From Bryobacterales bacterium (GTDB taxonomy: Bacteria; Acidobacteriota; Terriglobia; Bryobacterales; UBA6623), in the NCBI GenBank assembly GCA_028819575.1, contig JAPPLB010000123.1:1227-65226 (forward strand): 64,000 bases of DNA, given 5' to 3'. The notes under the pieces are model-generated. The model saw only the letters and a list, made by a program, of their open reading frames with translations, was not told the DNA's origin and did not search any database. A program made the position numbers and the translations under genes. Position 1 is the first letter of the stretch. Each line of letters begins with the position of its first letter. This document shows positions 49,785-52,880 of this stretch, one piece after another.

Positions 49785-49878
49785 GGAGAGGTGGCTGAGT
49801 GGTCGAAAGCAGCGGTTTGCTAAACCGTCGTAGGGGCAATAACCTCTACCGAGGGTTCGAATCCCTCCCTCTCCGCCA
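49785..49878 (+). tRNA. tRNA-Ser(GCT)
   Basis: Acceptor GGAGAGG/CCTCTCC, anticodon loop TTGCTAA, long variable arm, GGTTCGAATCC T-loop, G discriminator and encoded CCA. Confidence 0.97.
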
Positions 49879-50182
49879 GCTAGTCCGATATGCCGACGGG
49901 TTTCGCGACGGCTTTCGCCCCACCGAACGGATACGTGCTACTGTCAGTCGGCTCCTCTGCCACCAAGAGCTTAGCCGCCTCAGTGAGTTCGAGCCGGAGC
50001 CGCCCTCCAGAGATACAAGCGGAGACCTAGAGCTCAGCCATCGGCCTCCGAACTGAGCAGCTAAAGTATCGAGGTCAGCCCCATCAAAGAGCTACTTGCT
50101 GGACCAGTGCGGACTGAATAAGCTGGGTAGTTCAAGTTCGCAGTACGGAGCAGGTAAGCCTGAACGGAATTAGGGATAGGAC

Positions 50183-51547
50183 ATGGGCAAGGCCAAGAGC
50201 GTCCGATCCAGCTTCATGACTAACGAAGAGACACGTGACAAACAGACTATGGACCTCCTTAAGGTTGACTCAAAACATCCTAGGCGTCTCATCTCTCGGG
50301 AGAACAGCAAGCTGGAATATAAGCAAAGCTTCAATTGGGGGAGTAAGGCAAAATATGCCAGGACGATGGCTGCCTTCGCGAACAATGCTGGCGGATTCAT
50401 CGTTTTCGGTGTCAAGGACTCACCACACGACATCGTAGGGGTAGATCAGGAGCGGTTCGAAAGACTAGACCCGTCCCGCGTCACTGAGTACTTGAACTCG
50501 ACATTTGCGCCCGAGTTGGATTGGGAAATGTTCCAAATTGATTTAGTTGGCGTCCAGCTCGGTGTCATCGCGGTCGCCTCCGCAAAAGAGAAGCCGATCG
50601 TATGTATCAAAGGGGATGGAAAGGACTTGCAAGAGGCAGAAATCTACTACCGGTATAGGGGGCAGTCTGGCCGCATCAGGTACCCAGAGCTTCAGAGCCT
50701 AATTGCTGAAGGACAGAGGCGTGAGAGGGCTGCCTTTTTAAAGCACCTGCGAAACATCGTCCGCATCGGCCCGGAGAACGTGGGGGTGCTAGATCTTGTC
50801 GATGGCAAACTTACTGGTCATGGAGGAAGCCTCATCGTCAACCAAGAGCTCCTAAATCAGATCCAGTTCATTCGAGAGGGTCACTTCACTGAGAGGGATG
50901 AGGAGAGAAAGCCAACGCTCCGTGTGGTCGGCGAAGTGGAGGAAGTGCAAGCGAATGTCCTACGCAAGGTTGGGACAATCATACGCCCAATGGTTATTGG
51001 TCAAGAAGAACTCATGCTTGGCTTCCTGCGACAAGAGCACCCTCAAGCGCCAGTTGAATATCTCAGGCAAGCCTGTCGCGAAAGCTCGACGAACATGCCA
51101 ATCTACCATTTCGCTCTGGTAGCAAACATAGACACAAAGCAACTCCGAGAGTTGATCGTGAAGGAGAAGCCAAACCGCAAAGCACTCCTAAATCGCCTTG
51201 ATGGCGCTACAATCCAAGCCGTTGGTTCTCTTCAGTTAGAAACGCCGGCCTCTATACAGCGGAAGGAGATCTTTGACATTTTGAACGCAGGAGAACTCAA
51301 TCGACTGGTGAGGTACGGGAACATAAGGCTGTTTGAGGCGATAAGTCACTACATGCCAACTTCACCACCGCTGGCACTCATGGCCGCGCTTGTGAAGTTA
51401 GTCGAGGACGAGTTCGAGAGGATGAATTCTAACGAACGGTCACTATGTCGAAAGGCAGTGGCACACCTTGATGAAGTGCTGAACCAGGATGAATGTTCTC
51501 GTCTTAGCAACTTTGAACTCACCTCCCGACAAACTGTTCATTCCTAG
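50183..51547 (+). CDS. Schlafen/AlbA_2 domain protein with uncharacterised C-terminal region
   Basis: RENSKLEYKQS (ExxxxExK), MAAFANNAGGFIVFGVKD, IYYRY.GQS; visibly AT-richer codons than flanking genes. Confidence 0.88.
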   Translation: MGKAKSVRSSFMTNEETRDKQTMDLLKVDSKHPRRLISRENSKLEYKQSFNWGSKAKYARTMAAFANNAGGFIVFGVKDSPHDIVGVDQERFERLDPSRVTEYLNSTFAPELDWEMFQIDLVGVQLGVIAVASAKEKPIVCIKGDGKDLQEAEIYYRYRGQSGRIRYPELQSLIAEGQRRERAAFLKHLRNIVRIGPENVGVLDLVDGKLTGHGGSLIVNQELLNQIQFIREGHFTERDEERKPTLRVVGEVEEVQANVLRKVGTIIRPMVIGQEELMLGFLRQEHPQAPVEYLRQACRESSTNMPIYHFALVANIDTKQLRELIVKEKPNRKALLNRLDGATIQAVGSLQLETPASIQRKEIFDILNAGELNRLVRYGNIRLFEAISHYMPTSPPLALMAALVKLVEDEFERMNSNERSLCRKAVAHLDEVLNQDECSRLSNFELTSRQTVHS

Positions 51548-51631
51548 GTTCTCTCTGATCGTGATTTGTAGCCATCGCTGGCTACCCTTGCTTGCCACCG
51601 TCATGTCAGCTGTGCCCACCGGCGGGAACGG

Positions 51632-52465
51632 TTAGGGGCGCGCTCCTGCCACGCTGGCGAGCGCCGCCTTCAATACCTGAAAACACACCTTTGCGGTGTG
51701 CTCATCAGGCGTGAAGTTGGACACTATCTGCTGGTAAGGATGAATGTAGTTTCGAAAATCACGAAGCCCATGACTGAATTTCTGCACATCAGGCTTCAGG
51801 ACATCCACGTCGCTCGCCACGTGAATAAACTGTGCAAGAGTCCAGTCATGGAATCGCTTGACTTTTCCGTCTTCCGTCTTCGGGCTGACCGACGACTTGT
51901 TGAACTTGGCCGGCTCGTATTGCGCTTTACCAAGCAAGACGCCTTCAAGTATGCTTCCACATAAGAAGATGACCGAGAGATAAGCCCCTGCCTCTAGAGC
52001 CTTTTGAGCCTCTAGCAAGCGGCTCTCAATGATTGGGACAACGGCCGGTTCGACGGGAAGGTTCCGAACGTTTGGAATTGTGATTTCCTGGCTGAGAAAG
52101 CCCTGGACCGTGTTGACCGGTCTCGTTTCCTGACCAGCTCCCAAGATACGACCTATGATGTGACGTGCCTTTTCCAGGATCGGCCCATCGATATCTCTGC
52201 CGCTGAGTTCACAATCGACTTCATATTCATCCAGCATGTCAGAAAGCACTCGCCCTACCAGAGCGTCAGGTTCCTGCTCCCAGAACGATCGCATTTTCTT
52301 TGCTTTGGAAGTTCCATGAGTTTGGTACTTTCGACCGTGGATATCCACGCGATGTCGTCCAAAGAATTCACCGAAGGTCTTGTCGGAGTAGTTCAGAACA
52401 AAGCCGTCACCCATCTGCAGAGCCTTCTCAAGATAGCGCTTGTCAATGTGTGTAAGGCTGTTCAT
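51632..52465 (-). CDS. Putative abortive-infection-type protein with C-terminal HEPN domain
   Basis: N-domain MGDGFVLNYSDKTF..GTSKAKKMRSFW; C-domain EAQKAL..AYLSVIFLCGSILE and LRDFRNYIHP (HEPN R..H motif). Confidence 0.75.
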   Translation of the reverse strand: MNSLTHIDKRYLEKALQMGDGFVLNYSDKTFGEFFGRHRVDIHGRKYQTHGTSKAKKMRSFWEQEPDALVGRVLSDMLDEYEVDCELSGRDIDGPILEKARHIIGRILGAGQETRPVNTVQGFLSQEITIPNVRNLPVEPAVVPIIESRLLEAQKALEAGAYLSVIFLCGSILEGVLLGKAQYEPAKFNKSSVSPKTEDGKVKRFHDWTLAQFIHVASDVDVLKPDVQKFSHGLRDFRNYIHPYQQIVSNFTPDEHTAKVCFQVLKAALASVAGARP

Positions 52466-52880
52466 TAAGTGCCTCTATCTGTTGCCATCTCGACTTGGCT
52501 GTACGCGCGCGCTCGGTCTATGCAAGCAGAATTTGTTCTATGACATGGTATGCTCTCCGATGCCGCCACGGCCACAACATGTGGATCGGCTGACAAGTGC
52601 GTAACTGTCGACCACAAGGGCCGGGCTTCCCTCCACTGGTGATCTGAGCCGTTGGCGCGCACAAGGAACTCCTGATTTGGACGACGTGGATCGGGCTGTG
52701 CTAGCCTGACTACGTCCATTAGGGACCTGGGAATGGCGCCGGCGCCTGGTGGTTCATCAGGTGCGTCAGGCCGGGCAACCTCCGTTCCGACAAGACCGGA
52801 GCAAGGCTCAGGCTCTCGGGTATTGGGCGGCTGCCGGGCTCGGACGCCGGTTGCGGCATGATTGTGGAAGGGGATCAACC

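Follow-up and report, generated by a model that had tools for sequence, protein, structure and literature searches.

What has settled beside the tRNA-Ser(GCT) gene of this Bryobacterales contig, and do the two genes found there act together? The window, a stretch of 64,000 nucleotides from a Bryobacterales bacterium, contains this tRNA gene only (found by ARAGORN, with which Rfam agrees). An initial annotation, made from the letters of the sequence, had described the DNA directly 3' of the tRNA as a decayed island of about 2.8 kb that keeps two RNase-type defence genes, either independent or paired. Our analysis of sequence, structure models and characterized relatives suggests that the site is a hotspot that likely holds two horizontally acquired and independent single-gene defence candidates: ORF A, a putative Schlafen, and ORF B, a putative HEPN RNase of the DUF4145 branch. 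Coordinates of the features discussed below are collected in Table 1.

Table 1. Features of the tRNA-Ser(GCT) locus, in window positions.
Feature	Position	Strand	Basis
tRNA-Ser(GCT); its 3' end bounds the variable islet on the left	49785..49878	+	ARAGORN; Rfam tRNA, 62.2 bits
Low-GC variable islet, ~2.75 kb, hotspot cargo	49879..52630	.	GC, flank homology, differing cargo in relatives
ORF A, 454 aa, prokaryotic Schlafen (AlbA_2) nuclease candidate	50183..51547	+	Pfam PF04326; AF2 model
Schlafen/AlbA_2 core domain of ORF A (aa 12-180)	50216..50722	+	VIA, Foldseek
Catalytic-type motif of ORF A, E40-x4-E45-x-K47 (ENSKLEYK)	50300..50323	+	read from translation
C-terminal helical domain of ORF A (aa 270-454)	50990..51544	+	high pLDDT; no family match
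Gene stub, 5' end of another gene, earlier-cargo remnant	51556..51607	-	similarity to same-genus genome G001
ORF B, 277 aa, two-domain HEPN protein	51632..52465	-	AF2 model, fold, profile match
HEPN domain of ORF B (aa 135-277), divergent DUF4145 type	51635..52063	-	VIA, hhalign
Active-site-type motif of ORF B, R235-DF-R238-N239-YI-H242 (within LRDFRNYIHP)	51740..51763	-	conservation, alignment, model
N-terminal helical domain of ORF B (aa 1-115)	52121..52465	-	no family match

The islet is set apart by its composition, which is foreign. GC content falls from about 0.63 to 0.50-0.54 between positions ~50000 and ~52600, and the islet as a whole has a GC of 0.525 versus 0.613 in the rest of the window, the lowest value among 613 sliding 2.75-kb windows (mean 0.609, sd 0.020). 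Third codon positions follow the same pattern, with a GC3 of 0.580 in ORF A and 0.576 in ORF B versus 0.76-0.87 in six correctly framed flanking genes, a comparison that leaves out the gene at 52880-54047. The sliding GC and codon analysis proposed with the initial annotation thus agrees with its report of AT-richer DNA directly 3' of the tRNA.

Within the islet, the list of open reading frames contains two convergent, intact ORFs, as had been described, and no ORF of integrase size. No repeat involving the tRNA was found in the window, where the last 25 nt of the gene occur a single time when up to 3 mismatches are allowed. The window therefore has neither of the two hallmarks of a tRNA-integrated genomic island, an integrase and a directly repeated tRNA 3' end, and the initial annotation had correctly remarked on the absence of both. 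Between ORF A and ORF B lies a stub of 19 codons with 85% DNA identity to G001, a same-genus relative; its translation agrees at 12 of 19 residues with the start of a 221-aa ORF, which is whole in that genome and adjoins an intact 63-bp tRNA repeat there. The description of the islet as decayed fits this remnant. A search for RNA runs returned none containing the stretch.

A comparison of five same-genus genomes revealed that the locus differs between close relatives. Both flanks are common to all five, and homology to the window ends at 49878-49881 and restarts at ~52610-52648. Neither ORF A nor ORF B is carried by any of the five; four hold inserts of 1.9-6.3 kb with different genes, and in the fifth (G003) the flanks lie on different contigs, so that no insert size is given. 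A GmrSD-type protein is encoded at this site in G005, and G001 carries DUF6615, a split GmrSD, three unknown ORFs and the 63-bp repeat, which is exact, although no recognised integrase was found in its insert. G006 contains an N6_N4 methylase and a 209-aa ORF, and G004 shares with G006 a 332-aa ORF, identified by its near-identical start, alongside other ORFs. The 3' flank of tRNA-Ser(GCT) is thus a strain-variable insertion hotspot, as had been supposed from the tendency of tRNA 3' ends to receive integrations, and the suggested comparison of related genomes finds variable cargo between conserved flanks.

We then asked what each gene encodes. ORF A matches the Pfam family SLFN_AlbA_2 (PF04326) with an E-value of 4.1e-20 and 72.9 bits against a cut-off of 25.3, residues 40-164 aligning to profile positions 1-116 of 118. 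For the core domain of its AF2 model (pLDDT 84.3), the top seven VIA matches are all Schlafen, AlbA_2 or SAMD9 chains (Z 8.2-11.2, rmsd 3.3-4.5, 114-159 residues aligned), and the next row drops to Z 4.5. These include 3lmm (Z 11.2, rmsd 4.0, 147 aligned), 7ksp (Z 9.5), SLFN12 (Z 8.8) and SLFN11 (Z 8.7 and 8.2). Foldseek returned 24 matches at E<=1e-3, all of the Schlafen/AlbA_2/SAMD9 kind, with a probability of 1.00 for SLFN13, SLFN12, SLFN11, SLFN14 and SLFN5. The catalytic Schlafen motif has been defined as Ex4(E/D)xK (PMC13056530), which ORF A reads as E40-NSKL-E45-Y-K47; among 61 relatives E40 and K47 are invariant and E45 is present in at least 90%. Sequence and model thus identify ORF A as a prokaryotic Schlafen nuclease candidate and uphold the Schlafen/AlbA_2 assignment made at the outset.

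The C-terminal domain of ORF A has no Pfam match, and a VIA search with the whole model gave it no match above Z 4.5. In the Atlas its matches (TM 0.76 by query) are confined to the C-terminal parts of other AlbA_2 proteins, and it is presumably a sensor or regulatory part. We identified 242 relatives of ORF A, mostly of about 440 aa, with a multi-phylum yet patchy distribution (3 of 400 other genomes of the phylum). At 18 of 41 loci around these relatives we find the neighbour clusters c1/c2, four representatives of which contain DNA methylase domains in a Pfam scan (HsdM-type N6_Mtase or N6_N4_Mtase); UvrD, a serine recombinase and a transposase are among the other neighbours. Source annotations call the relatives only "ATP-binding protein" or "putative DNA-binding domain".

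ORF B itself matches no Pfam, NCBIfam or PADLOC family, and the PADLOC comparison proposed with the initial annotation accordingly puts no name to it. Its AF2 model has a pLDDT of 94.1. HEPN-named entries predominate among the top ten VIA matches of residues 135-277, the remaining rows being three chains with titles that name no fold and TT1696, a neighbour of the HEPN homologue 1wol in the Foldseek result. The best scores were obtained with 2hsb (Z 10.2, rmsd 2.5, 114 aligned), 1ufb (Z 9.8, rmsd 3.1, 118 aligned) and 5yep_B (Z 9.5, rmsd 2.8, 117 aligned). Helical bundles can reach a Z of about 10 simply through a common arrangement. AbiA, Csm6, LsoA, RnlA, AbiV and HepS appear at lower ranks, as do MtlR chains (Z 5.5-5.7), and Foldseek alone gave no match at E<=1e-3 for this domain. 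In a profile-profile comparison, hhalign links the ORF B family to 22 canonical DUF4145 proteins with a probability of 96.3% (E 1.7e-9, 103 columns). Against the Pfam DUF4145 profile (PF13643), ORF B has no match at E<=1 and misses the gathering score, and 37 of 60 relatives match at E<=1; when ten relatives were examined, eight matched at 14.8-26.4 bits, and one of the ten exceeded the cut-off of 23.1. Since the cut-off is missed but the profile-profile link is present, ORF B is by its sequence a divergent relative of DUF4145 rather than a member by Pfam's rule.

Five residues are invariant among 60 ORF B relatives, including R238, N239 and H242, and R235 is present in at least 90%. R235-x6-H242 corresponds to the HEPN Rx4-6H motif before the last core helix and aligns, with one residue missing, to VRxxGNxxAHP in the 22 canonical DUF4145 proteins. 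The HEPN-like gene with an R..H motif that had been noted from the translation is thus borne out in both fold and conserved motif. Modelled as a homodimer, ORF B scored 0.51 versus 0.00 for the best of 3 controls, clearing a mark that 20 of 30 proteins with structures solved as pairs attain, against 1 of 23 whose structures were solved as single chains. At least 86% of contacts recurred across the runs, with partner pLDDT of at least 80, and the modelled interface comprises residues 149, 174, 238 and 240-244, which places the motif at the interface. This score may reflect likeness to solved HEPN dimers. The N-terminal domain has no Pfam match and only weak VIA matches (Z ~5). At one locus (L134) it is fused to a Ymh domain (PF09509) (hhalign probability 99.8%, aa 1-168), and we presume it to be a sensor or adaptor.

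The genomic company of ORF B relatives provides a further connection to defence. At E<=1e-3 we identified 3086 relatives (clusters at 90% identity), nearly all of about 277 aa, which are 40-75% identical across more than 10 phyla and patchily distributed. Restriction-modification genes lie within 4 kb at 35 of 80 loci (27 type I, 8 MmeI-type), and none of the counted clusters (type I c1-c3, MmeI c5) does so at the other 45. HsdS accounts for 15 and MmeI for 7 of 73 upstream neighbours, HsdR for 7 of 78 downstream ones, and the neighbourhood as a whole is strongly biased to restriction-modification, Abi, Fic and RhuM genes. Relatives of both ORFs therefore sit among restriction-modification and other defence genes, the proximity to defence islands that had been suggested as a check. 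The window copy of ORF B has no adjacent restriction-modification gene in the window's ORF list, and three type I systems are encoded elsewhere in the genome.

These data describe an ordinary variable defence hotspot with two putatively independent single-gene candidates, and we infer a defence activity for both. Bacterial Schlafens that have been tested defend and cut tRNA, and five of the seven systems assayed did not protect (PMC13056530); by analogy with the tested Schlafens the N-terminal nuclease of ORF A would cut tRNA once its C-terminal domain senses infection. The DUF4145 protein RAZR is a proven abortive-infection RNase that needs R146 and H154 (PMC13017515). ORF B would dimerize so that the R235/H242 motifs of two subunits meet at the interface, with the N-terminal domain keeping the RNase silent until a trigger arrives; once released, it would cleave RNA and stop translation, as in abortive infection. 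Because relatives are often found inside type I or MmeI-type restriction-modification operons, the family probably forms a second line behind restriction; in the window, where such genes are not adjacent, the restriction-linked mechanism may not apply.

A stronger version of this idea, which we regard as doubtful, is that the ORF B family is a dedicated guard of restriction enzymes. The N-terminal domain would monitor type I or MmeI-type complexes, or phage anti-restriction proteins, and would release the DUF4145-type HEPN RNase when restriction is disarmed. This would make the family a small counterpart of PrrC that does without an ATPase. Action in trans is conceivable and would be needed by the window copy, for which the three type I systems elsewhere in the genome could serve.

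Could the two genes instead have no role in immunity? ORF A might be a nucleic-acid-binding or regulatory AlbA_2 protein, and ORF B a selfish addiction toxin or a HEPN-like protein with a part in RNA processing or regulation but no nuclease activity. This would suit the uninformative names given to ORF A relatives and the 45 of 80 ORF B loci that have none of the counted restriction-modification clusters, as well as the published figure that 30.4% of Schlafen genes in bacteria have no known defence gene nearby (PMC13056530). A number of HEPN families, such as MtlR, lack activity or serve in regulation (PMC3710099, Table 1), and MtlR chains occur among the fold matches of ORF B. Catalytic-type residues are nevertheless invariant or nearly so in both families, both are patchily spread over multiple phyla, their neighbours are strongly biased to defence genes and in relatives this hotspot is occupied by GmrSD or a methylase. 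We consider a non-immune role improbable.

A further question is whether the genes form one system, in which the HEPN protein cooperates with the Schlafen nuclease or controls it. They are adjacent, have the same low GC and GC3, and occur together on a contig from a separate study (X3) that has 22 differences over 3832 nt; fusions of HEPN and Schlafen domains are, moreover, reported for the MAE_18760 family (PMC3710099). An HMM of the ORF A family also gives matches at 3 of 80 loci around ORF B relatives, at one of which (L029) a distant AlbA_2-domain gene lies directly downstream on the same strand, so that a loose association of AlbA_2-domain genes with ORF B relatives may exist. All three are weak, non-orthologous AlbA_2-domain matches, however, and tblastn with ORF A found nothing at any of the 80 loci. 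In the reverse direction, the ORF B-family HMM matched at 1 of 41 loci around ORF A relatives, where a protein 2.1 kb away has the N-terminal domain only, joined to a different C-terminal domain. Their convergent orientation means that ORF A and ORF B cannot share a transcript, they are separated by the stub of a third gene and members of each family mostly occur singly inside other operons. The last 1639 letters of a 3627-nt metagenome contig (X5) match 51630-53266, covering ORF B and the right flank, and the first 1988 letters of this contig fit nothing in 48800-51630, meaning that unlike DNA occupies the place of ORF A. The paired system that the initial annotation had entertained, and the recurrent co-occurrence of homologues that would accompany it, are not borne out. 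ORF A and ORF B are probably independent, and a two-gene system seems very unlikely. That the islet is inert wreckage, with both ORFs decaying leftovers of a lost mobile element, would agree with the gene stub and with the missing integrase and att repeat but is scarcely credible, as both ORFs are full length relative to their families, have no stops or frameshifts and keep every invariant residue, and the X3 contig is ~99.4% identical over the whole islet.

Under the favoured reading of two independent candidates, the locus represents one more tRNA-adjacent defence hotspot whose cargo is swapped between close strains. From ORF A comes a candidate sensor domain for the bacterial Schlafen tRNases, a group recognised only recently. 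Of the two, ORF B is more useful as a lead, representing a large and strongly conserved family unnamed in Pfam, NCBIfam and PADLOC v2 that bears all the marks of an abortive-infection HEPN RNase and prefers the interior of restriction-modification operons. It could add a widespread single-gene defence system and could reveal whether restriction enzymes have guards of the PrrC kind among small HEPN proteins.

A comparison with known systems suggests that ORF A and ORF B are additional, putative members of nuclease kinds already known. The closest parallel for ORF A is provided by the prokaryotic Schlafen nucleases (pSlfn), such as RorSlfn5 and EcoSlfn7 (Nat Microbiol 2026, PMC13056530). ORF A shares with them the SLFN_AlbA_2 domain, the core fold and the Ex4(E/D)xK motif, likewise combines its nuclease domain with a second domain, presumably a sensor, in one polypeptide, and sits in a defence island. 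Residues 270-454 differ in matching none of the HisKinase, HTH, DUF5929, Ig-like, DUF262 and TBP-like fusions named in the text of that paper, and ORF A would join the 17.2% reported there to have unannotated fusions.

ORF B may be compared to RAZR (PD-T7-4), a zinc-finger DUF4145 HEPN RNase (Nature 2026, PMC13017515). Both have Arg and His in equivalent positions and appear as single genes with a non-catalytic N-terminal domain and a dimer through the HEPN domain, which for ORF B is modelled. ORF B differs in lacking a Cys4 zinc finger, with one Cys in its N-terminal domain (aa 1-115) where canonical DUF4145 proteins of the phylum have CPxC...CxxC. Its motif is also one residue shorter (Rx6H versus R146-x7-H154), its HEPN domain has an insertion of ~22 residues and its family resides mainly inside restriction-modification operons; PADLOC PD-T7-4 matched neither ORF B nor any of 60 relatives.

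AbiJ/Ymh (PF09509) HEPN proteins (Anantharaman et al. 2013, PMC3710099) likewise combine a variable helical N-terminal domain with a C-terminal HEPN domain, often in restriction-modification operons, and the N-terminal domain of ORF B is itself found fused to Ymh. The HEPN domain of ORF B belongs to the DUF4145 branch, in contrast to the Abi_C or Ymh domains of these proteins: hhalign gave a probability of 0.15% against one AbiJ protein, and no AbiJ_NTD model matched the N-terminal domain. Of the neighbours of ORF B relatives that were scanned, AbiJ genes make up 3 among 73 upstream and 1 among 78 downstream. AbiJ_NTD5 appears as an Atlas lead only, in 45% of the members of one neighbouring cluster.

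PrrC and RloC are anticodon nucleases, HEPN-type RNases within type I operons (PMC3710099), the slot that many ORF B relatives occupy, and follow the logic of a second line behind restriction (PMC3710099; PMC2610378). At 277 aa, ORF B is far smaller and lacks their ABC-ATPase domain, no ATPase family being found in ORF B or 60 relatives. The window copy lies outside a restriction-modification operon, whereas its family does have such neighbours, and a protein that may work like PrrC/RloC is therefore a better description of ORF B than a member of the PrrC/RloC group.

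GC content falls from ~0.63 to 0.50-0.54 immediately after tRNA-Ser(GCT) and stays low until ~52600. The resulting islet (49879-52630) has a GC content of 0.525 vs 0.613 elsewhere in the window, the lowest value among 613 sliding 2.75-kb windows (mean 0.609, sd 0.020), in agreement with the ~2.8 kb of AT-richer DNA noticed in the initial annotation. A second, smaller dip, to ~0.54, lies downstream at 56600-57200. Two convergent genes, here called ORF A and ORF B, occupy the islet, with GC3 values of 0.580 and 0.576, respectively; six flanking genes range from 0.76 to 0.87. No integrase-sized frame was found within the islet and no repeat involving the tRNA within the window, where the final 25 nt of the tRNA are unique even when up to 3 mismatches are allowed. 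Promoter (2 sites vs 1.5 in shuffles) and terminator (2 sites vs 2.9) scans revealed no excess, Rfam reported nothing in the islet other than the tRNA and, on the strand opposite to it, an overlap below threshold, and no RNA run containing the stretch is among the 20 runs listed.

Features of the islet and the adjoining tRNA gene
Feature	Position	Strand	Description
tRNA-Ser(GCT)	49785-49878	+	sole tRNA gene of the window
ORF A	50183-51547	+	open frame, 454 aa
Gene stub	51556-51607	-	52 nt between ORF A and ORF B, 85% identical to same-genus genome G001
ORF B	51632-52465	-	open frame, 277 aa

The 3' flank of tRNA-Ser is a variable hotspot. Five same-genus genomes contain the tRNA together with both of the genes that flank the site, with both flanks on one contig in four of them and the downstream flank on another contig in G003. 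Homology to the window ends at 49878-49881 and restarts at ~52610-52648, and none of the five genomes contains ORF A or ORF B. In the four genomes with linked flanks, 1.9 to 6.3 kb of DNA with other genes lies in between. G005 encodes a 650-aa GmrSD_N protein (PADLOC HEC-05), G006 an N6_N4 DNA methylase followed by a 209-aa ORF, and G004, among other ORFs, the same 332-aa ORF as G006 (recognized by its near-identical start only). The cargo of G001 (locus L096, G001:C1:3771200-3779500) includes a 4.2-kb element delimited on one side by the tRNA and on the other by a perfect 63-bp repeat of its 3' end; this element encodes a DUF6615 protein and a split GmrSD gene without a recognizable integrase; a further 2 kb beyond it holds three unknown ORFs (141, 230, and 235 aa).

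Contigs from public sequencing runs agree with a variable hotspot. A single 3832-nt contig from run X3, which belongs to another study, spans 49850-53681 and carries 22 differences. Run X5 provides a 3627-nt contig whose last 1639 letters align to 51630-53266 (ORF B and the right flank) and whose first 1988 letters match nothing in 48800-51630; the break falls at the ORF B stop codon. ORF A is mostly without contig cover in X5 and X8, and X4 provides low-depth pieces only; such gaps in cover were not counted as evidence.

The stub between the two genes provides a trace of this history. Its 19 codons correspond to the start of a 221-aa ORF in G001, with 12 residues identical; there, the intact gene (L096 3757-4422) lies just inside the 63-bp tRNA repeat and has no Pfam or PADLOC family. 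With this G001-like remnant retained between its two genes, the islet is a mosaic produced by successive insertions and deletions.

ORF A is, by its sequence and predicted structure, a bacterial Schlafen with an uncharacterized C-terminal domain. Residues 40-164, where the initial annotation had recognized AlbA_2/Schlafen motifs in this gene, score 72.9 bits against Pfam SLFN_AlbA_2 (cut-off 25.3, E 4.1e-20). In PADLOC, this domain is matched only in part, by the candidate PDC-S50 (E 1.3e-7), and nothing more was found. The AF2 model (pLDDT 84.3, 61 sequences) consists of two well-modeled parts and a poorly modeled linker (aa 216-269). In VIA structure comparisons, aa 12-180 match only Schlafen-type structures, namely 3lmm (Z 11.2), SAMD9 (9.5), SLFN12 (8.8), and SLFN11 (8.7 and 8.2), with the row after these at Z 4.5, and Foldseek concurs with the Schlafen-type match. 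The catalytic motif that a 2026 study describes for bacterial Schlafens, Ex4(E/D)xK (PMC13056530), is present as E40-x4-E45-x-K47 and conserved across relatives. For the C-terminal helical domain (aa 270-454), Pfam offers no family, and the structure search with the whole model gave nothing above Z 4.5; in the Atlas structure-cluster resource it is found in other AlbA_2 proteins only.

The ORF A family is patchily distributed, occurring in 3 of 400 other genomes of the phylum, and its one locus in viral contigs is the contig of a metagenome locus (L133). The window's own genome encodes four AlbA_2 genes in total. Neighbor gene clusters c1/c2 are present in 18 of the 41 loci around ORF A relatives, and Pfam identified DNA methylase domains in all four c1/c2 representatives checked; a UvrD helicase, a serine recombinase, and a Mutator transposase are also found nearby. 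The 2026 study reports that 69.6% of bacterial Schlafen genes lie near defense genes, that two of seven tested systems were protective, and that one tested system cleaves tRNA when triggered (PMC13056530).

ORF B proved harder to place. Searched alone, it matched no Pfam, NCBIfam, or PADLOC family, the best scores being unusable (Pfam Quaking_NLS, E 0.14; PADLOC Hp2, E 0.055; NCBIfam, none), and no PADLOC v2 model matched it or its 60 relatives. A 90%-identity collection contains 3086 relatives at E<=1e-3, nearly all ~277 aa and none with a recorded Pfam domain, and 2641 representatives in a 50%-identity library are matched. Genome-record relatives, 39-74% identical to ORF B, come from Acidobacteriota, Alpha- and Gammaproteobacteria, Spirochaetia, Dehalococcoidia, Longimicrobiales, Bacteroidota, Planctomycetota, Desulfobacterales, Nitrospinota, Bdellovibrionales, and candidate-phyla bacteria, a distribution that points to horizontal spread of the family. 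Seven viral-contig loci match the HEPN half only (40-53%). We found no printed description of this family in the literature, supplementary tables aside.

Several lines of evidence indicate that the C-terminal half of ORF B is a divergent DUF4145-type HEPN domain. In the ORF B model (pLDDT 94.1), the best ten VIA rows for aa 135-277 are mostly HEPN-named, led by 2hsb (Z 10.2, rmsd 2.5, 114 aligned), with AbiA, Csm6, LsoA, RnlA, AbiV, and HepS at lower ranks; Foldseek against the PDB gave nothing at E<=1e-3, and a profile of 60 relatives gave only chance matches to PDB sequences (E>=0.09). Residues R149, E174, R238, N239, and H242 are invariant across 60 diverse relatives. Atlas clusters named DUF4145 served as a pointer for this domain. 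Pfam DUF4145 is detected at E<=1 in 37 of the 60 relatives (best 7.5e-6) and covers ~aa 150-250 in 8 of 10 examined, at 14.8-26.4 bits, of which one passes the 23.1-bit cut-off. A profile-profile comparison of the family with 22 canonical DUF4145 proteins of the phylum gives a match (probability 96.3%, E 1.7e-9) and aligns LRDFRNY-IHP of ORF B with VRFVGNDAAHP of DUF4145. By this alignment, ORF B has the DUF4145 motif minus one residue (R235-x6-H242), along with an insertion of ~22 residues, and it bears out the HEPN-like R..H motif noted initially. Canonical DUF4145 proteins occur in 44 of 401 genomes searched, a tally that includes one unpublished genome (G079) that contributed to no other result; those of the phylum (L148-L177) mostly have an N-terminal CPxC...CxxC zinc ribbon, which is the RAZR architecture, and the window's genome encodes one, on contig C45.

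A homodimer model of ORF B passed its controls, scoring 0.51 (best control 0.00). Of proteins solved as pairs, 20 of 30 reach this mark, as does 1 of 23 single chains; the outcome may owe something to HEPN dimers already solved. Runs had at least 86% of contacts in common with pLDDT >=80, and the modeled symmetric interface comprises residues 149, 174, 238, and 240-244.

No family matches the N-terminal domain (aa 1-115). In L134, a locus of ORF A relatives, it is fused to Ymh (PF09509; hhalign probability 99.8%), described as another HEPN family (PMC3710099). The N-terminal and HEPN domains are thus exchanged, as in AbiJ-type proteins. AbiJ_NTD5 is an Atlas lead for the N-terminal domain: a family search found none in 401 genomes and also none in 14 control genomes, which voids that search; kinship of the ORF B family to AbiJ was rejected in a comparison with one AbiJ protein (hhalign probability 0.15%).

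We examined the genomic context of ORF B relatives at 80 genome loci by neighbor clustering and Pfam checks. At 35 of these, restriction-modification genes are found no farther than 4 kb away (27 type I, 8 MmeI), and the counted clusters were not seen at the other 45. Two arrangements recur: hsdM-hsdS-[ORF B]-hsdR, seen for instance at L013, and MmeI-type enzyme-[ORF B]-DEAD helicase-T5orf172 protein. Immediate upstream neighbors (n=73) include 15 HsdS, 7 MmeI, 4 Eco57I-type, and 3 AbiJ proteins; downstream neighbors (n=78) include 9 with ResIII (7 full HsdR), 5 DEAD, 4 Peptidase_M78, 2 DUF3644, and 2 SLFN_AlbA_2. The hsdS-hsdR slot is a known home of embedded defense genes such as DarTG2 (PMC12255303), and new systems have been discovered through 'guilt by embedding' (bioRxiv 10.1101/2024.01.29.577857). 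In the window, ORF B stands alone, and the genome's three type I loci are on other contigs. In one of these operons (L178, G000:C113:10000-23056), the hsdS-hsdR slot contains a 302-aa gene whose family is unknown and which is unrelated to ORF B (hhalign probability 0.19%); a second AlbA_2 gene lies ~1.8 kb downstream of hsdR.

The MmeI arrangement is a recurrent four-gene block, mostly in Alphaproteobacteria (L002, L004, L008, L009, L011, L023, L031, L059), in which the helicase is a 685-aa DEAD/ResIII protein and the last gene encodes a 400-aa T5orf172/MUG113 protein; it may represent a composite defense system. At 5 of the 80 loci (L005, L010, L015, L025, L040), the next gene directly after the ORF B relative, in the same orientation, encodes a ~383-aa Peptidase_M78 (IrrE/ImmA-like) protein, which may have a regulatory role alongside the ORF B relative in this sub-group. 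The window lacks this gene.

The initial annotation left open whether the two islet genes form a paired system or are independent. An ORF A-family HMM found three weak AlbA_2-domain proteins at the 80 ORF B loci (L025, L029, L068), and the Ymh fusion in L134 was the one protein that an ORF B-family HMM found at 41 ORF A loci. An ORF A tblastn search of the 80 ORF B loci found none. Given this near-absent co-occurrence, the convergence of the genes, the intervening stub, and the X5 contig that carries ORF B apart from ORF A, we conclude that ORF A and ORF B are independent occupants of one hotspot.

All that the initial annotation observed in this stretch is thus confirmed. Homology and genomic context support its reading of the islet as one with two RNase-type defense effectors, and from them we infer the function of both genes throughout; its option of a paired system is not supported. 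Both genes are of kinds already known: ORF A is a bacterial Schlafen whose C-terminal domain is uncharacterized, and ORF B is a divergent DUF4145-type HEPN with a new N-terminal domain, whose large unnamed family prefers restriction-modification operons. DUF4145 was placed in the HEPN superfamily in 2013 and has been seen in such operons (PMC3710099). RAZR, a DUF4145 protein, is a proven abortive-infection RNase that requires R146 and H154 (PMC13017515), and ORF B differs from it in lacking the zinc finger.
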